Shown in pieces: positions 1-8,105 of a DNA stretch of 64,000 nt (its first letter is position 1; each line of letters starts with the position of its first letter). A program made the position numbers and the translations under genes. Location of the stretch: NCBI GenBank assembly GCA_963767005.1, contig CAVYCN010000002.1, positions 224,001 to 288,000 on the forward strand, read 5' to 3'. The notes beneath the pieces were generated by a model, which did not search any database, was not told where the DNA came from, and saw only the letters and a program-made list of their open reading frames with translations. Origin of the DNA: an uncultured Actinomycetes bacterium (GTDB lineage: Bacteria; Actinomycetota; Thermoleophilia; UBA2241).

Positions 1-1304
1 GCCAGGCGCAGCGGGGCGCCGCCGCCGGCGGCGAGGGCGACGAGTACGGCGCCGGCCAGGGCGCACAGGGCGGCGCGGCCGCGCGGCAGCGGCCGGTCGG
101 CTACGAGGCGCGCGAGCGCGCCGGCCACCAGGATCGCGAGGAACGGGATCGCCGGCGTGAGGTAGTAGATGTAGGACTGGCGGCTCGTGGCCAGCCAGGG
201 CAGGTAGAGGCAGGCGGCGAGCAGCGCGGGGGCGGTGCCGGCGAGGTCGCGCCGGCGGGCCGCGAGCCAGACCACGGCGACGAGGGCGACGATCGAACCC
301 CAAAGCAGCAGCGGGTTGCCGATCGCGACGAGACCGACGACGTCGCCGTGCGGCGCGAGCGCCCAGCGATACCAGATCGGCGTCGCGTCGAAGATCCAGG
401 TGAGCGGTCGCGAGGCCATGGTCGAGACGCCCTGCACGTTCCAGTTGAAGGTCGCCATGTAGCGCTGCAGGTGGAGCCACTGGCCGAGCGTGTGGCCGCT
501 TGCGAAGTAGTCGGCATAGCTTGCCACGTAGACGGCGAGCGGCAGGACGACGAGGCACGCGAGGGCGGCCGCGGCGCGGCCTGCCGCGCCGCCGGCGACT
601 TCGCCTGCCGGCCGCGCCCGCCGCTCGCGCACCACGGCCACGGCCACGATGCCGGCCGCGGCCACGAGGGCGAACAGGCCGGACCATTTGCTGGCGACCG
701 CGCAGCCGCCGGCGAGTCCGGTGAGCACGAGCCAGCGCGCCGGACGTCTTGGGCTGCCCGACTGCACGAAGCGCAGAGCGCAGTAGATGCAGACGGCCGA
801 CCAGAGGGCGACGAAGGGGTCGAGCACGCCGATGCGCGACTCGGTCATCAGCATAGTGTCGGCCGCGGCGAGCACGAGGGCCACGAAGGCCCAGCGCGGC
901 GCCAGGCCGAGGCGGCGGGCGAGCGGGTAGACGAGCGCGATCAGCAGCGTCCCGGCGATGGCCGCCGGCACGCGCCAGCCCCAGGGGCCGTCGCCCAGGA
1001 CCTCGACGCCGGCGGCGATCGCCAGCGTGCCGAGCTCCGGGTGGGCGAGCGAGCGGGCCGCGCCCGGCTTCCAGGGCGCCGATCCGCGCGGTCCGAGGCC
1101 GCCGTGCACGATCACGCCGGCGTCGTGTGCGTAGTAGTGCTCGTCGAAGACGTAGGTGCGGTAGACGCCGAGGTTCACAAAACGCACGGCGGCCGAGAGG
1201 GCGACGACGACGAGCACGCCCGCGAGCAGGGCGCGCGCCGACGGCGCGCGCCCGCGCGGCGCGGCCGCCGGCGTCAGGCGGACGGGGGCCGCGGGCTCGG
1301 TCAT
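1..1304 (-). CDS. Protein O-mannosyltransferase (PMT/GT39-like) paralog 2, 3' end outside the window
   Basis: Not in the ORF track. Manual translation from ATG 1304 (overlapping the upstream TGA): MTEPAAPVRL...VRFVNLGVYRTYVFDEHYYAHDA...HPELG...ESRIGVLDPF...ASKWSG...GNPLLLWG. These motifs parallel the upstream PMT. Confidence 0.85.
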   Translation of the reverse strand, partial: MTEPAAPVRLTPAAAPRGRAPSARALLAGVLVVVALSAAVRFVNLGVYRTYVFDEHYYAHDAGVIVHGGLGPRGSAPWKPGAARSLAHPELGTLAIAAGVEVLGDGPWGWRVPAAIAGTLLIALVYPLARRLGLAPRWAFVALVLAAADTMLMTESRIGVLDPFVALWSAVCIYCALRFVQSGSPRRPARWLVLTGLAGGCAVASKWSGLFALVAAAGIVAVAVVRERRARPAGEVAGGAAGRAAAALACLVVLPLAVYVASYADYFASGHTLGQWLHLQRYMATFNWNVQGVSTMASRPLTWIFDATPIWYRWALAPHGDVVGLVAIGNPLLLWGSIVALVAVVWLAARRRDLAGTAPALLAACLYLPWLATSRQSYIYYLTPAIPFLAILVAGALARLVADRPLPRGRAALCALAGAVLVALAAGGGAPLRL

Positions 1305-3022
1305 CAGATCCAGTTGCGGAACCACATGAGGTGGTAGAAGTGGGGGATCGCGATCGGCAGGTCGATGAGGATCGGCAGGAACGCGAGGCAGACGCCGGTG
1401 ACGGCGCCGGCGTAGACCCACGTGACGTAGGGCCACAGGCGTTTGGCCGGCGCCCAGAAGAACAGGCCGAGGGTGACGAGCACCGCCACGGTGATGCCGA
1501 CGGCCAGGGTCACGCGGGCGAGGTCGACCGAGAGGATGGCGGGGTCGCGCCAGAACAGCCAGTCGGCGGCCACGCCGATCTGGTACCAGAACAGCGCGAC
1601 GACCACGCAGGCGGCCGCGTAGCAGGCGGCCGCGAGCTGCCAGCGCGGCACGCGGCTCGCGGCGAGTTCGCGAAGCATGGCGGCCACGGCGAGGGCCATG
1701 AACGGCGCGACCGGCGTCATGTAGTACATGAACGACGTGCGGGTCGTGCGCAGCCAGGGCAGGTAGAGCAGGGCTACCATGATCGGCAGTACGGCGAGCT
1801 CGCGGTCGCGGCGGCGCACGGCGAGCACGACGAGGCCGACCAGGGCGGCGATGGAACCCCACCAGAGCAGCGGGTTGCCGATCGAGATGATGCCGTGCAC
1901 GCGCCCACCGATCTGCTCGTAGTAGTACCAGACGGGGCGGTAGTCGAAGATCCAGGTGTAGGCGCGCGAGGCGTAGGTGTGGGTGGCGTGGAGGCTCTCG
2001 TTGAACCACCACATCTCCTGCTGGAGCTGCCACCACTGCGAGAGCGTGTGGTGGCCGACGGCGAAGTAGTCGACGTAGCTGGCGAAGTAGAGGCCGGCTG
2101 GCAGGGCGACCAGCGACAGCGACGGCAGGCGCACCTCGGGCACGCCGACCTCGAGCGTCACGACGCCGGCGGCCGCGAGGGCGATCGCGAGCGAGACGTG
2201 CGGCAGGAGCCCGGGAGCGCGGATGCCGAGCGCGGTGAACGCGCCGCCGGCGACCACCAGGCCCACACCGGCGGCGAGCCAGGGCCAGCGCCGCCAGGCC
2301 GCGTCGGGCCGGCGCCGGTGCAGCAGGATGTAGGCGGCCGCCGCGGCGATCGCGAAGGCGCCCGACCACTTGGTGCCGAGCGCGAGGCCGCCGGCGAGGC
2401 CGCACAGCACGAGCCAGCGGGTGCGGTGCCCGCTTTGCACATAACGCAGCGCCAGGTAGACGCAGAGCACCGACCAGAAGGCGACGAAGATGTCGAGCGT
2501 GGCGATGCGCGACTGCACGATGCCGAGAAAGTCGGAGGCGGCCAGCACGAGGCCGAGCAGCGCCCAGACGGGCGGCAAGCCGAGGCGTCGGCCGATGGGG
2601 TAGACGAGGCAGAGGAGCAGCGTACCGACGATCGCCGCGACGATGCGCCAGCCGAAGGAGTGGTAGCCGAAGGCGGCCTCGCCGGCGGCGATCGCGTACT
2701 TGCCGTACTCGGGGTGCGGCCACGAGATCTCCTTGCCGGGCTCCCAGGGGTAGACGGCGGTGCCGGCGAGCGCGCCCTGCAGGATCGCGTGGGCGTCCTT
2801 GGCGTAGTAGACCTCGTCGAAGACGAGCGTGGCCGGTCGCTGGAGCTCGTACAGGCGCACCGTCGCCGACGCGATGAGGACGAGCAGGACCAGGACGACG
2901 ATCACGCCGGGGGCGCGGTCGGGACGGCGCGGCCCGTCTTCGGGAGGAGGGTCGGCGACCCGGTCGGCGACCTTTCGGGGACGCCTGGTGGGCCTGCTGC
3001 GCGGCTCTCGGGTCTTGACCAT
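1304..3022 (-). CDS. Protein O-mannosyltransferase (PMT/GT39-like, phospholipid-carrier-dependent glycosyltransferase)
   Basis: FDEVYY, HPEYGK, QSRIATLDIF, TKWSG, HTYAS and GNPLLWW motifs; polytopic membrane protein. TATAAT at 3030-3035 (minus) lies 7 nt before ATG 3022, suggesting a leaderless start. Confidence 0.88.
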   Translation of the reverse strand: MVKTREPRSRPTRRPRKVADRVADPPPEDGPRRPDRAPGVIVVLVLLVLIASATVRLYELQRPATLVFDEVYYAKDAHAILQGALAGTAVYPWEPGKEISWPHPEYGKYAIAAGEAAFGYHSFGWRIVAAIVGTLLLCLVYPIGRRLGLPPVWALLGLVLAASDFLGIVQSRIATLDIFVAFWSVLCVYLALRYVQSGHRTRWLVLCGLAGGLALGTKWSGAFAIAAAAAYILLHRRRPDAAWRRWPWLAAGVGLVVAGGAFTALGIRAPGLLPHVSLAIALAAAGVVTLEVGVPEVRLPSLSLVALPAGLYFASYVDYFAVGHHTLSQWWQLQQEMWWFNESLHATHTYASRAYTWIFDYRPVWYYYEQIGGRVHGIISIGNPLLWWGSIAALVGLVVLAVRRRDRELAVLPIMVALLYLPWLRTTRTSFMYYMTPVAPFMALAVAAMLRELAASRVPRWQLAAACYAAACVVVALFWYQIGVAADWLFWRDPAILSVDLARVTLAVGITVAVLVTLGLFFWAPAKRLWPYVTWVYAGAVTGVCLAFLPILIDLPIAIPHFYHLMWFRNWI

Positions 3023-3033
3023 TCGCGACATTA

Positions 3034-3086
3034 TAGTGCCGGCGAGCGACTTCGTCGTCGCCGCTCAGGCAAGCGTGACTGCGTCG
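3034..3086. repeat. Dispersed ~55-bp repeat, copy 1
   Basis: tagtgccggcgagcgacttcgtcgtcgccgctcaggcaagcgtgactgcgtcg aligns with the copies at 21824 and 25221. Confidence 0.75.
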
Positions 3087-3098
3087 GGCGCGGTCGGC

Positions 3099-3695
3099 TC
3101 AGGCGCCGTCGGCCCGTTCGCGGGCCGGCTGTCGCGGTCCCGCTGCGGGCGCCGCCAGGGCGGCGCCGGCGCCGCGCATGCCGGCCGCGATCAGCCAGGC
3201 CAGGCCGACGGCGATCAGCAGGTCGCCCGGACTGAAGACGTTGGCGAGCGGCACGGCGTGAGGCAGGGCGAAGACGTCGCCGAGGAAGCCGAGATGCGTG
3301 GCCGCGCCGGCGACCTCGGAGTTGTTGTGGTGCCCGGTCGCCTCGACCAGGCCGGCGAGGCGCAGGGCGGCCCGGCTGGCCGGCATGTAGCCGCCGTTCA
3401 CGACGATCGTCACGGCGTTGCTGATGACCCCGGCGCCAAAGCAGACGACTGGCCGGCGGCGGATGTTCGCGGCCACGAAGGTCAGCAGGAGCGCATACGA
3501 GGCGAGGTGGAGCGCGATGATCGCGGCCCCCGGGAGGCGTTCGCCGAGCGGCGAGAAGGCGACGAGCTGCAGGGCCAGGGCGAGCACGACGAGCGCTGCG
3601 AGGCGCAGCGAGAGCCGCTCGAGGTTGCCGAGCGAGCCGCCGAGCAGCGTGCCGGCGAGCAGGCCGCCGACGACGGCTACGACGAGGACGAACAC
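3099..3695 (-). CDS. DUF5317-family membrane protein (putative LspA-like aspartic peptidase)
   Basis: GTG 3695 overlaps the end of the HD-GYP gene. MFVLVVAVVGGLLAGTLLGGSLGNL...SNAVTIVVNGGYMP...LGDVF...VFSPGDLLIAVG motifs are typical of DUF5317. Confidence 0.8.
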   Translation of the reverse strand: MFVLVVAVVGGLLAGTLLGGSLGNLERLSLRLAALVVLALALQLVAFSPLGERLPGAAIIALHLASYALLLTFVAANIRRRPVVCFGAGVISNAVTIVVNGGYMPASRAALRLAGLVEATGHHNNSEVAGAATHLGFLGDVFALPHAVPLANVFSPGDLLIAVGLAWLIAAGMRGAGAALAAPAAGPRQPARERADGA

Positions 3696-4996
3696 GACTC
3701 GCGCGGGGTCGAAGGCAGCGCCACGAGACGGGGCTTGGCCGGGTTGCGCCAGCAGCCGATGAAGGCGTCGACGAGATCGGGGTCGAACTGGCGCCCGGCG
3801 CCGCGGCGCAGCTCGGCGAGCGCGATCTCCGACGACAGGGCCGCGCGGTACGGACGATCGGACGTCATGGCGTCGTAGGCGTCGGCGACGGTGATGATGC
3901 GCGCCCCGAGCGGGATCTGCGTGCCGGCCAGGCCGTCGGGGTAGCCACGCCCGTCCCAGCGCTCGTGATGGTGGCGGATGTAGTCGCGCCCCTTGCGGTA
4001 CATGCTGAACTGTCCGGCGAGCTCGCTGCCGTCGGCCGGATGGGCGATGATCGCGCGGCGCTCCTCTTCGGTCAGCGACGCCTGCTTGTAGAGGATGCGG
4101 TTGTCGGTCGCGATCTTGCCGAGGTCGTGCACACGCGCGGCCGAGATGACGAGGTCGATCTCTTTGCGCGGCAGGTCGAGGGCGCGGGCGATCTCGCCGG
4201 CGTACTCGGCCACCCGCAGGGAGTGGGCGTAGGTGTACTCGTCGCGCTTGTCGACGGTGTCGGCGAGCAGGGCGAGGGCGTGGTCGGTCTCGCTCTGCAG
4301 GTTGGCGTAGAGCTTGAACCCCGTGTAGATGACGAGGATCAGGAACGGGAAGTAGAGGATGTTCCAGGGGCTGTCCTGGTAGGCGAAGGCCAGCAGGGCG
4401 CCGAGCGGTGTCATCGACACGTAGAGGATGCCCATCTCGCGGAACGACGCCGTCCATTCGTGGAAGAAGGAGCGGCCCGAGAGCGTGATGATGCCGGCCA
4501 CCAGGGTGTCGTTCACGAGCAGGAAGATGGCCGCCGAGACGACGATCGCGGGCGCGTCGCGGCGCAGATCGACGGGGCCGGACACGGCGAGCAGCCGGTA
4601 GACCACGGCGGCGAGCGCCGAGGTGAGGCAGACCTGGCTGCTGTTGAACAGGACGCGGCTCCAGTGGCGCCGCGAGAGGACGAGGTCGCTGCCCACGACG
4701 CCGCCCATGGCGACGACGCTGGCGAAGGCCGGTCCGTAGAGGATGGTGGCCGCGAAGGCCACGGTGAGTGACAGCGACATGCTGCCCTCGAAGCTCGACG
4801 CGACCGCCCAGCGTTCGCTCGCGATGGCCGCGCCGAGGAGCACGACGAGGTCGGTCCAGTGGTGGCTGGGGAACGTGTGGAAGGTGGCGGCCAGGAGGAG
4901 GGCCGCGCCGGCGGTGACGCCGCCGATGTACGTTGCCACCGCAGGCGACACCCGGGTCGGGGTGGTGGGTGCCGCCTGCGGTGGCTGCTCCGTCAT
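3677..4996 (-). CDS. Membrane-anchored HD-GYP c-di-GMP phosphodiesterase (multi-TM N-terminal sensor plus HD-GYP domain)
   Basis: About 230 aa of hydrophobic N-terminus, followed by HSLRVA, HDLGK, HHERWDGRGYP and ADAYDAMTSDRPYR motifs. Confidence 0.92.
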   Translation of the reverse strand: MTEQPPQAAPTTPTRVSPAVATYIGGVTAGAALLLAATFHTFPSHHWTDLVVLLGAAIASERWAVASSFEGSMSLSLTVAFAATILYGPAFASVVAMGGVVGSDLVLSRRHWSRVLFNSSQVCLTSALAAVVYRLLAVSGPVDLRRDAPAIVVSAAIFLLVNDTLVAGIITLSGRSFFHEWTASFREMGILYVSMTPLGALLAFAYQDSPWNILYFPFLILVIYTGFKLYANLQSETDHALALLADTVDKRDEYTYAHSLRVAEYAGEIARALDLPRKEIDLVISAARVHDLGKIATDNRILYKQASLTEEERRAIIAHPADGSELAGQFSMYRKGRDYIRHHHERWDGRGYPDGLAGTQIPLGARIITVADAYDAMTSDRPYRAALSSEIALAELRRGAGRQFDPDLVDAFIGCWRNPAKPRLVALPSTPRESCSSSS

Positions 4997-5054
4997 GATT
5001 CAGATGTCAGGCTGGCTTGCTGCCTGCGCCGGATCGACGCGTGCTACGCGCGCG

Positions 5055-5147
5055 TCAGTCCCACTTGAGCCAGGCGCCGCTCGTGACGGCGAGCGCCACG
5101 ACCAGGGCCAGCGTGATGACGACTTTGTTCGTGAGGATGCTCTTCAT
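5055..5147 (-). CDS. 30-aa signal-peptide-like small protein MKSILTNKVVITLALVVALAVTSGAWLKWD
   Basis: Manual translation; strong SD (GGAGAGGGAG) upstream of the ATG; paralogous to 5194-5289. Confidence 0.8.
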   Translation of the reverse strand: MKSILTNKVVITLALVVALAVTSGAWLKWD

Positions 5148-5193
5148 GTTGGATCTCCCTCTCCCAAGGTGACGAGTCGCGTGCGCCCGAGTG

Positions 5194-5289
5194 TCAGCTC
5201 CACTTCTTGAAGGCGCCGCTCGCGAGCGCGAGTGACACGATCAGCGCCACCATCGCGAGCTTAGGGTAGGTGCCTTTCAGCAACCTCAT
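5194..5289 (-). CDS. 31-aa signal-peptide-like small protein MRLLKGTYPKLAMVALIVSLALASGAFKKWS
   Basis: SD (AAGGGAGGG) just before ATG 5289; shares the C-terminal LA(L/V)(A/T)SGA[FW]xKWx motif with 5055-5147. Confidence 0.8.
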   Translation of the reverse strand: MRLLKGTYPKLAMVALIVSLALASGAFKKWS

Positions 5290-5385
5290 GAGCCCTCCCT
5301 TCGTGCGTCGGTCCCCACCAGACCGGTCGGGCCGTCCGTGACGTTGCCAGGCGTCGTGCGGACGGTCATGTCCGAGTGCTTCTGG

Positions 5386-5413
5386 ATATCGGCACCGGCT
5401 TTGCCGTTCTTTA
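5386..5413 (-). promoter_or_regulatory. Sigma28 (FliA/SigD/WhiG)-type promoter
   Basis: The minus strand reads TAAA-gaacggcaaagccggt(16)-GCCGATAT, matching the sigma28/SigD consensus, ~100 nt upstream of the first small ORF. Confidence 0.75.
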
Positions 5414-5543
5414 ACTTGGAACGAGGCTCTCGTGAAAGGAACAGGCGTGCGTCGGCGCTGGCGGCCCGGCACGTCGTGTGATATCACTCTCACGGCTCGA
5501 GCGTCCGCCGCGCCGCCGGTCCGGCCGGCGGCCTCTTCCGAGC

Positions 5544-5557
5544 CGAACGTCTGTTCG
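5544..5557. promoter_or_regulatory. Possible LexA (SOS) box
   Basis: CGAACGTCTGTTCG fits GAAC-N4-GTTC, like the boxes at lexA and dinB. Confidence 0.4.
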
Positions 5558-5612
5558 TCGAGTGCACCCGAGCCGCGCCCGGGCGCGACAGGACCAAGGA
5601 GGGAACCGCAAC

Positions 5613-6251
5613 ATGACCGACCAACAGCACGAGGTCCTCGCCACGGTGAGGGACAAGATCGCCAACCCGGCGCCGCTCGGGCTCATGGCGTTCGGCATGA
5701 CCACCGTGCTGCTCAACCTGAGCAACGCCGGCCTCTTTCCGCTGAACAGCGTGGTCCTCGCCATGGGCGTCTTCTACGGCGGCGCGGCGCAAGTGATCGC
5801 CGCCCTGCAGGAGTACAAGAAGAACAACGTCTTCGGGGCGACCGCCTTCGCTTCGTACGGCTTCTTCTGGATGAGCTTCGTCGCGATCTTCGCCTTCCCG
5901 AAGTGGATCGGCATCGAGGCCGCGAGCACGACGGCGCTCGGCTGGTACCTGCTCGCCTGGGGCGTCTTCACCGGCCTCATGTTCGTCGCCACGCTGCGCA
6001 TCAACGTGAGCCTGCAGGTGGTGTTCGGCAGCCTGACGATCCTGTACGTGCTGCTCACGCTCCATTTCTGGACCGGCAACGCGATGCTCGGCAAGGTCGC
6101 CGGCTGGGAGGGCGTCTTCGTGGGCCTGTCGGCCATGTACGGCGCGATCGCCCAGATCTGGAACGAGGTCTACGGCGAGGTCGTGCTGCCGCTCGGCCAG
6201 GTCGAGCGGCCGCGCGCCGTCAAGGTGATGCCGTCGACGAGCGGCAAGTAG
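5613..6251 (+). CDS. satP: Acetate/succinate transporter, GPR1/FUN34/YaaH (SatP) family
   Basis: ANPAPLGLMAFGMTT signature, FYGG and AFASYGFFW; SD AAGGAGG before ATG 5613. Confidence 0.9.
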   Translation: MTDQQHEVLATVRDKIANPAPLGLMAFGMTTVLLNLSNAGLFPLNSVVLAMGVFYGGAAQVIAALQEYKKNNVFGATAFASYGFFWMSFVAIFAFPKWIGIEAASTTALGWYLLAWGVFTGLMFVATLRINVSLQVVFGSLTILYVLLTLHFWTGNAMLGKVAGWEGVFVGLSAMYGAIAQIWNEVYGEVVLPLGQVERPRAVKVMPSTSGK

Positions 6252-6437: not shown

Positions 6438-8105
6438 ATGAGCGTCGTCGGATCGGATCGGGTCGTACGCGCGCCGCGGGGCACGCAGCTGTCGTGCCGC
6501 GGCTGGCAGCAGGAAGCCGCCCTGCGCATGCTCATGAACAACCTCGACCCCGAGGTCGCCGAGCGGCCTCAGGACCTCGTGGTCTACGGTGGCGCCGGCA
6601 AGGCGGCGCGCAGCTGGGAGGCCTTCGACGCGATCGTCGCCACCCTGCGCCGCCTGGGCGACGACGAGACGCTGCTCGTGCAGTCGGGCAAGCCGGTCGG
6701 CGTGTTCGAGACGCACCCCTGGGCGCCGCGCGTGCTGATCGCCAACGCCAACCTCGTGGGCGACTGGGCGAACTGGGACGAGTTCCGTCGCCTCGACGCT
6801 CTCGGCCTCACCATGTACGGCCAGATGACGGCCGGCTCGTGGATCTACATCGGCACGCAGGGCATCCTGCAGGGCACCTACCAGACCTTCGCCGCGGCCG
6901 GCGAGAAACACTATGGCTCAGACCTGGCAGGTCGCCTCGTGCTCACGGCCGGCCTGGGCGGCATGGGCGGCGCTCAGCCCCTGGCCGTCACCATGGCCGG
7001 CGGCGTGGCACTGTGCGTCGAGGTCGATCCCGTGCGCATCAAGCGGCGCCTCGAGACCGGCTACGTCGACCAGTCGACCGAATCCCTGGACGAAGCGCTG
7101 CGCTGGGCGGCGGCCGCCGCCAATGCCAGGCAGTCGCTCTCGATCGCCCTGCTGGGCAACGCCGCCGACGTCTACCCCGAGCTCGTGCGACGCGGCGTCG
7201 TGCCCGACCTCGTGACCGACCAGACCTCGGCGCACGACACGCTCAACGGCTACATCCCGAACGGCATGTCCTACGACGAGGCCCTCGCGCTGCGCGCGAG
7301 CGACCCGGGCGAGTACGTCAAGCGGGCCGTCGCGGCGATCGTCGAGCACGTGCAGGCGATGGTGGCGCTGCAGAGGGCGGGCTCAAACGTCTTCGACTAC
7401 GGCAACAACATCCGCGGCGAGGCTAAGGCGGCCGGCTTCGCCGACGCCTTCGCCTTCCAGGGCTTCGTGCCGCTCTACATCAGGCCGCTCTTCTGCCGCG
7501 GCAACGGTCCCTTCCGCTGGGCGGCGCTGTCGGGCGATCCGGCCGACATCACGCGCACCGACCGCGCCGTGCTCGAGACCTTCCCTGACAACGAGATGGT
7601 GACCCGCTGGATCCGCATGGCCGCCGAGAAGGTCCATTTTCAGGGGCTGCCCTGCCGCATCTGCTGGCTCGAGTACGGCGAGCGGGCGAAGATGGGCAAG
7701 GTCTTCAACGAGCTCGTGCGCTCGGGCGAGGTCAAGGCGCCGATCGTGATCGGCCGCGACCACCTCGACTCGGGCTCGGTGGCCTCGCCCTATCGCGAGA
7801 CCGAGGCCATGCGCGACGGCTCCGACGCGATCGCCGACTGGCCCATTCTGAACGCGCTCCTGAACACGGCCGCCGGCGCCTCGTGGGTGAGCTTCCACCA
7901 CGGCGGCGGCGTGGGCATCGGCAAGAGCCTGCACGCCGGCATGGTGGTCGTCGCCGACGGCACCGACATGATGGCCGAGCGCCTGCGGCGCGTGCTCACC
8001 ACCGACCCCGGCACGGGCGTGATGCGCCACGCCGACGCGGGCTATCCCGAGGCGCTCGAGGCCGCGCGTGAGTACGGCATCGACCTGCCGATGGCGGGGG
8101 CGTGA
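6438..8105 (+). CDS. hutU: Urocanate hydratase
   Basis: [34 protein letters not shown] and [18 protein letters not shown] motifs; SD GGAGG before ATG 6438. Confidence 0.97.

Follow-up and report, generated by a model that had tools for sequence, protein, structure and literature searches.

Two tandem micropeptide genes at the head of an operon

In the genome of an uncultured Thermoleophilia bacterium, two very short reading frames lie in tandem ahead of a gene for a predicted phosphodiesterase of cyclic di-GMP (c-di-GMP), and this arrangement raises the question of whether the frames are genes and, if they are, what their products do. We analyzed the window, meaning the whole 64,000-nt stretch in which they lie, together with loci from other genomes and metagenomes. 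The features of the locus, read along the minus strand, were as follows.

5413–5387, minus strand: predicted sigma-28/WhiG promoter (TAAA, 16 nt, GCCGATA), 97 nt ahead of the start of peptide A
5289–5194, minus strand: putative precursor peptide A, 31 aa, with basic N-region, hydrophobic helix, ASGA box and tail FKKWS
5147–5055, minus strand: putative precursor peptide B, 30 aa, with basic N-region, hydrophobic helix, TSGA box and tail WLKWD
4996–3677, minus strand: MASE9-HD-GYP, 439 aa, Pfam PF20972 and PF13487 (HD_5) above cut-off; predicted c-di-GMP phosphodiesterase
3695–3099, minus strand: DUF5317 membrane protein, 198 aa, Pfam PF17248, overlapping the stop of MASE9-HD-GYP

A and B come first in this operon, followed by the MASE9-HD-GYP and DUF5317 genes on the same strand, with a Shine-Dalgarno-like GGAGG run 4 nt upstream of A and GGGAG 7 nt upstream of B. 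An earlier note on this DNA had placed both frames here, each behind such a run, and had remarked that the ORF track omitted one and mis-started the other; both observations were borne out, as the mechanical ORF list with its 60-aa limit lacked B and hid A within a 99-aa GTG frame (5493–5194). Searches of A and B against Pfam and NCBIfam returned no family at cut-off, and Rfam gave no match at E ≤ 5 over positions 2900–5700. The module is neighbored by genes for a protein O-mannosyltransferase (PMT) and YaaH and by hut genes; the PMT-like gene (window 1304–3031, same strand) lies directly 3' of DUF5317 and is syntenic in several loci of the genus and family.

Peptides A and B are conserved coding genes

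Where the earlier note had looked to frameshifts in homologous loci as a refutation, both frames proved intact in 11 genomes of the genus, and the dN/dS comparison among relatives that it had proposed revealed purifying selection, with pooled Nei-Gojobori values over these 11 genomes of 0.30 for A and 0.23 for B. Third codon positions were variable in 24/30 columns of A and 21/29 of B, compared with 9–14 at the other positions; the spacer between A and B ranged from 46 to 65 nt, and TGA and TAG were interchanged as the stop codon of A. A rule for such ORFs matched 5 times in the 3.44 Mb of this genome, 3 of them family members, but in 52 of the 67 DUF5317 loci whose flanks were complete (0.55 Mb in total, some near-duplicates included). 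That the ORFs are chance frames or a non-coding regulatory leader, a reading favored by their shortness and by the blank family searches, is highly improbable in view of the low dN/dS, the third-position bias, the intact frames with interchanged stops and a peptide family that spans phyla. On the comparative sequence evidence, A and B are genuine conserved genes.

Selection was unevenly distributed along the peptides. The ASGA box of A had no amino-acid change at a pS of 0.60, whereas the A tail had a pooled dN/dS of about 1.0 over few synonymous sites, its first residue being F or A, its last free and KKW fixed. The proposal in the earlier note that selection acts on the C-terminal motif was thus supported for the box and the C-terminal KW, while the A tail is not uniformly constrained. 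The helices had dN/dS of 0.34 (A) and 0.11 (B), and helices and N-regions overall ranged from 0.11 to 0.41, a conservation that would also suit a membrane-anchored role.

A wider peptide family accompanies DUF5317

In 149 genomic and metagenomic DUF5317 loci, filtering without any requirement on the C-terminal motif yielded 106 distinct small basic-hydrophobic ORFs, of which 78 ended in [KR][WF]x0-4, compared with 6/90 ORFs in this genome as a control. Ala stood exactly three residues ahead of the K/R in 76/78 family members, giving the family ending A-x-x-[KR]-[WF], and this Ala, fixed at the helix end, makes the box resemble a cleavage site. The tail after Ala comprised 4–8 residues; the "exactly five" of the earlier note held for A and B and for 43/78 members. 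Its F or W directly after the box did not generalize, since this residue was Gly in 47/78 members (and Pro in 7/78). The box is lipobox-like in its small residues (position -3 was S, L, V or A in 68/78), but Cys was absent from A and B and occurred in 1/78 members, where it replaced the Ala. Downstream of the box, the 78 share no conserved nucleophile of the Cys, Ser or Thr type.

The three-part module of peptide, sensor and DUF5317 was recorded in Actinomycetota, Chloroflexota, Bacillota and Bipolaricaulota, and tandem peptide pairs recurred outside the family to which the genus belongs (for example at loci L056, L059, L184 and L204). Among the 67 full-flank DUF5317 loci, a peptide was present in 52 and a MASE9-like gene in 52; the two occurred together in 45 and were both absent in 8, leaving 15/67 without a peptide. 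Some of these loci had gone into building the sensor profile, and a few are near-duplicates. In 61 relatives, all 20 DUF5317-positive genomes matched the peptide profile at E ≤ 1.1e-4, and five others gave only weak matches, within frames of 215–521 aa; the profile was built partly from close genomes, so that this comparison is partly circular.

We then extended the scan to 151 genomes of the phylum, 59 of which carry DUF5317 (six of the 59 are unpublished). Stop-terminated peptide matches were found in 17 other genomes, all 17 DUF5317-positive. Seven further profile matches fell within long proteins, and DUF5317 was absent from the genomes of five of these; one more weak match was not translated. 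The profile search gave no stop-terminated match in 40/59 DUF5317-positive genomes, suggesting either that the profile is insensitive or that other precursors exist. At 19 true peptide loci, a count that leaves out two loci of one unpublished genome, a MASE9-like gene lay within 1.5 kb in 16 and DUF5317 in 6, indicating a pairing of peptide with sensor and a DUF5317 able to act in trans. The phylum scan, together with the LspA and subtilase-pattern tallies below, includes the unpublished genomes G061, G077, G105, G143, G172, G198, G222, G271 and G284. Close homologues of the window's DUF5317 were labeled Actinomycetota or Thermoleophilia. The association of the peptides with HD-GYP and DUF5317 genes suggested by the earlier note is therefore supported by operon layout, by the 52/67 loci and by the phylum scan.

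A and B are two lineages with genome-specific tails

Within the genus, A and B formed two separate, stable lineages, present together and in the same order in 11/11 main loci. Most genus genomes carried one or two further A+B pairs without an adjoining sensor or DUF5317. The tails fell into two dialects, with this genome (G000), G006 and G011 combining FKKW and [WF]LKWD, and the remaining nine genomes of the genus combining AKKW and WWKWD; G010, with a genome 56% complete and no main pair found, was left out of the dialect counts. The four-residue core of a stand-alone copy equaled that of the main copy of its own genome in 12/12 cases for A and 12/13 for B. The leaders behaved differently: those of the stand-alone copies in this genome were 44% (A) and 46% (B) identical to its main copies, and more similar to main copies of other species that have a different tail (56–76% for A, 54–75% for B).

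The F-dialect genomes form one clade, which indicates a single dialect switch. Sensor-domain divergence was 0.24–0.29 between dialects and 0.13–0.19 within them, a ratio of 1.65, compared with control ratios of 0.93 for HD-GYP, 1.04 for DUF5317, 1.01 for HutU, 1.09 for PMT and 1.21 for YaaH (G008, which has a truncated sensor frame, and very close genome pairs are left out). Of 16 dialect-diagnostic residues, 15 lay inside the sensor, at a Fisher p of 0.11 against ordinary variation. A sensor diverging in step with the tails is suggestive of ligand-receptor co-evolution, as seen in one event on one branch.

The earlier note had proposed that A and B might be two pherotypes. We rejected this reading because the two are always co-encoded, and pherotype-like variation runs between genomes instead. 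We regard A and B as two non-redundant signals; our leading guess assigns them to different sensors (this genome encodes four MASE9-like proteins), and it is possible that they act as agonist and antagonist on one sensor.

The stand-alone A+B pair of this genome (L141:5567–5843; G000:C2:654566–654842) has a separate WhiG-like site and is followed by a hairpin. In its B copy, WLKWD lacks the preceding Ala and the peptide is six residues longer; G011 (L254) shares this form, and G006 (L246) has a related one with Cys. One B copy reads TMG-C. In all, five stand-alone copies lack the SGA box, namely three B forms with tails 3–6 residues longer and no Ala and two short A forms, the latter being 23-aa copies (L241:3739–3810 and L243:3678–3749) that have lost the box and most of the helix and kept AKKW and a good Shine-Dalgarno run. 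Such deviating copies may undergo different processing, act as inhibitors or be in decay. In G022 (L255:1108–1367 and 7642–7901) and G010 (L253:3511–4566), the pair is repeated exactly or almost exactly within a few kb, which could reflect recent duplication or an assembly artefact. A lower-GC3 region before the stand-alone pair of this genome holds a 535-aa Cas1-family ORF (PF01867; L141:664–2271) with a C-terminal extension, near which no other cas genes were recognized.

The sensor is predicted to have an S-component fold

The MASE9 domain matched PF20972 at 34.8 bits (cut-off 24.3). The HD-GYP motifs were intact (HDLGK at 290, HHERWDGRGYP at 343, RPYR at 381, and D252 as the N-terminal acidic metal ligand) by the definitions HD, HHExxDGxGYP and RxY[K/R] given in the accessible text of Galperin and Chou (bioRxiv 10.1101/2021.11.05.467447), and the domain is predicted to break down c-di-GMP. 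A model of the sensor domain, approximately residues 18–235, had a pLDDT of 87.5. In a VIA search, its top 14 matches were all ECF S-components, led by RibU (Z 16.7, rmsd 2.7, 158 residues aligned), and Foldseek likewise returned an ECF S-component (probability 1.00, E 8e-3). MASE9 is thus predicted, from this model, to have the six-helix S-component fold, resembling RibU, FolT, ThiT, BioY, PanT and CbiM at Z 10.9–16.7 over 153–190 residues. Identity to these proteins is 8–16%, and a fold in common is by itself no proof of function. Unlike S-components, which serve as transporter subunits for vitamins and metals, MASE9 is fused to a signaling enzyme, and its locus has no ECF module. S-components bind small solutes in an outward-open pocket, and such a pocket would suit a short soluble peptide.

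The MASE9-HD-GYP architecture (PF20972 with HD_5) is shared with Thermotoga maritima TM1467 and Streptomyces venezuelae HdgA. In their accessible parts, Galperin and Chou (bioRxiv 10.1101/2021.11.05.467447) give no MASE9 ligand, and the HdgA report suspects that activating signals were missing (PMC6205966); the main texts on these proteins do not contain the word "peptide", and we did not meet the precursors, the DUF5317 partner or the S-component fold in them. Across the DUF5317 loci, the sensor was joined to HD-GYP, GGDEF-EAL or GAF-GGDEF-EAL outputs.

Other MASE9 genes of this genome provide further candidates. A paralogous MASE9-like HD-GYP (L127:3030–4412; G000:C4:445071–446300) is 51% identical and is a candidate second receptor; the filters used found no peptide gene beside it, and similar paralogues occur in G002, G003, G005 and G011. 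At L129:1888–5045 (G000:C2, ~589.4–592.5 kb), a secreted subtilase ending in about eight SRYSW repeats is directly followed by a MASE9-SpoIIE phosphatase sensor, an anti-sigma-like gene and a STAS-like gene. A pattern search of the phylum found a subtilase with a Trp-pentad tail at 15/30 loci, 11 of the 15 adjoining a MASE9-like gene; the 11 pairs outside this genome all come from one family. The SRYSW-repeat subtilase is a possible second source of Trp pentapeptides.

DUF5317 as a candidate processing enzyme

The DUF5317 model had a pLDDT of 90.6. D140 and D158 were invariant in alignments of 99 and 66 sequences, alongside the invariant polar residues Q43, N77, N93, N100 and N125. By the positive-inside rule, the two aspartates would lie at the outer membrane face, where an N-in precursor would present its box. 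LspA (PF01252) likewise has two invariant aspartates in the pattern D...F-[SN]-x-[GA]-D running into the last membrane helix, and D140 and D158 aligned with LspA D114 and D128 when DUF5317 was compared with a profile of 26 LspA proteins (alignment A3), over 37–39 columns only and at HH probabilities of 32% and 15%. The other invariant residues of LspA (DQxxK, N-x-G, GN-xx-DR) fell outside the aligned stretch, and PF01252 gave no match to DUF5317 at E ≤ 1. In fold searches, VIA gave helical hairpins at a best Z of 7.0 and Foldseek nothing at E ≤ 0.001, with LspA listed by neither, and sequence searches of PDB and Atlas returned nothing usable; these blank searches are no evidence of a new fold. 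DUF5317 may work like LspA, and we do not class it as a member of that family. The genome also encodes an LspA of its own.

The putative substrates show a parallel pattern, in that A and B have a basic-hydrophobic leader ending in small residues, as LspA substrates do, but lack the lipobox Cys, which occupies position +1 according to the accessible text of PMC9360617. A cut before Ala would place it where the lipobox has this Cys; the cut may lie before or after Ala. Among the loci scanned, DUF5317 was fused to an MFS transporter in four (L020, L027, L033 and L077) and to GAF-GGDEF-EAL in one (L056), fusions that tie it to export and to signaling.

A predicted WhiG promoter and feedback loop

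Upstream alignment revealed a single conserved island, TAAA-N16-GCCGATA at 5413–5387. It differs in the last base of its -10 box from the WhiG consensus T(A/C)AA-N16-GCCGATAA, as given in the accessible text of PMC8325347 and bioRxiv 10.64898/2026.01.14.699351, and is predicted to be a WhiG-type promoter; no sigma-70 promoter was found at the locus. The strict pattern occurred at 11 sites genome-wide and 0 in a reversed control, other sites preceding a type IV pilin-like gene (recognized by eye) and another MASE9-HD-GYP gene. A looser pattern, defined after seeing the alignment, lay ahead of 14/18 main loci and 8/14 stand-alone pairs, 0/29 distant peptides and 0.3% of random 300-bp windows.

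The genome encodes WhiG (277 bits, cut-off 189.6) and a single-motif RsiG homologue (E 1e-9) with His for Gln in the RsiG motif, which together with the promoter suggests a feedback loop. Because RsiG holds WhiG when armed by c-di-GMP, peptides that activate the phosphodiesterase would increase their own expression; an effect of opposite sign would give negative feedback. In known RsiG-WhiG systems, as far as the accessible texts go, WhiG promoters precede type IV pilus genes and genes for diguanylate cyclases and phosphodiesterases, feedback loops have been proposed, and the systems extend to Rubrobacter, with single-motif RsiG in Thermoleophilia; unlike the loop proposed here, those texts name no peptide input.

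The predicted 5' UTR (window 5310–5385, minus strand) contains two conserved blocks, CACT-GG-AC and a GGTCGATCTGGTGGGGATC-like one, that flank a variable hairpin; it had no Rfam match, and the blocks are a possible translational control element. The other MASE9-HD-GYP gene, at L128:3709–5295 (G000:C10:140644–142291), has two divergent perfect WhiG-type sites upstream. A doubtful 25-aa hydrophobic ORF before it, situated between these two sites, was considered as a third peptide and rejected, as it has no KW motif and lies upstream of the gene's WhiG-type site.

Released pentapeptides and the alternatives

We propose that the precursors would insert N-in/C-out in the membrane and that DUF5317, with its two aspartates, probably frees their tails at the outer face, giving FKKWS and WLKWD, or each with a leading Ala, as predicted mature peptides. 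Their likely binding site would be the MASE9 domain, S-component-like in its model, of the neighboring HD-GYP enzyme, and their binding would alter c-di-GMP breakdown. Lower c-di-GMP would in turn free WhiG from RsiG, leading to more expression of the peptides and of the type IV pilin gene. In which direction the peptide acts on the enzyme is our guess; activation would give autoinduction. We give about an even chance to this proposal, in which pentapeptides are exported, likely through a cut by DUF5317, and MASE9 senses them to change c-di-GMP breakdown. A more far-reaching version is tentative and well short of even: MASE9 would be a peptide-receptor family built on the S-component fold, reading into c-di-GMP the Trp peptides cut from micro-precursors (with DUF5317 as a new class of aspartyl peptidase) or from subtilase repeats, and in this genus two co-evolving peptides and RsiG-WhiG would form a two-signal, dialect-specific quorum-sensing loop over type IV pili.

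The peptides might instead be uncut single-helix membrane regulators, with the helix docking on MASE9 and offering the KW tail to its pocket, and with DUF5317 as a co-receptor or a signal-ending protease. We consider this possible if rather doubtful. The purifying selection on the helix would fit it, Trp and Lys are typical of membrane interfaces, some copies lack the box, and tail specificity with co-divergence of the sensor would fit a tethered ligand equally well. Against this, the Ala keeps one distance from the K/R across phyla in 76/78 members, leaders drift to 44% identity and two copies have lost most of the helix, and the DUF5317-MFS fusions suggest that a product is exported. A released peptide is the likeliest reading of the A and B tails.

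If the tails are released, another enzyme could do the cutting. Housekeeping signal peptidase I (SPase I) might release them for a Phr-like export, DUF5317 then trimming, importing or degrading the product, and S-G-A and A-G-A do fit its rule of small residues at -3 and -1, as does the -3 residue in 68/78 members. A cut after Ala in this manner clashes with the 7/78 members that have Pro right after it, a register in which SPase I is blocked, and the restriction of peptide matches to DUF5317-positive genomes likewise argues against a housekeeping enzyme; we consider this route unlikely. Improbable, too, is a DUF5317 that acts as a transferase or cyclase, with an acylated or cyclized peptide as the mature signal in the logic of AgrB. 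Its extra invariant polar residues, the absence of a fold match to a solved peptidase, the Cys that replaces Ala in one family member and the TMG-C of one B copy would fit such an enzyme, but no conserved nucleophile follows the box and no conserved modifying enzyme was found in the loci scanned.

Relation to known peptide signaling

Peptide quorum sensing is represented in Bacillota by the AgrBDCA, ComCDE, Phr/Rap and SHP/Rgg systems. As in those systems, a small precursor here stands beside a candidate processing membrane protein and a putative receptor, the mature peptide would be short and C-terminal or internal, signal variants appear matched to the receptor by strain, and autoinduction is likely. 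Unlike the histidine kinases AgrC and ComD or the cytoplasmic RRNPP receptors, the putative receptor has a c-di-GMP output, and unlike Agr and Com the locus has no double-Gly leader, thiolactone Cys, AgrB or peptidase-ABC exporter; in Pfam and NCBIfam, neither the peptides nor the proteins encoded with them in the operon gave an AgrD-, ComC- or Phr-type match. By this comparison, the system most likely works like peptide quorum sensing, yet lacks the features that define membership of the Agr, Com, Phr or lipoprotein systems.

A literature search found no description of the module, with the bioRxiv supplements (MASE9 alignment, WhiG target tables) and a PNAS appendix as places where the loci could be mentioned, and no paper on DUF5317. 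Among inputs to c-di-GMP catalogued in 2022 (PMC8846402), DSF and AI-2 are the quorum signals given as sensed directly, and the accessible text names no peptide pheromone. New here are the paired A and B lineages, the genome-own tails of the stand-alone copies, the divergence of the sensor with the tails, the predicted S-component fold, and the predicted WhiG promoter and loop. If the proposal is true, direct reading of a peptide by a c-di-GMP enzyme would open a new route of input to this messenger and constitute an undescribed form of peptide signaling between bacteria. The proposal supplies exact, cheaply synthesized candidate ligands for the orphan MASE9 sensor family and, for DUF5317 with its two invariant aspartates, a candidate substrate, and the two natural dialects provide a built-in specificity control. 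DUF5317 and MASE9 are both present in Thermus thermophilus and Thermotoga maritima, where the module would be testable.
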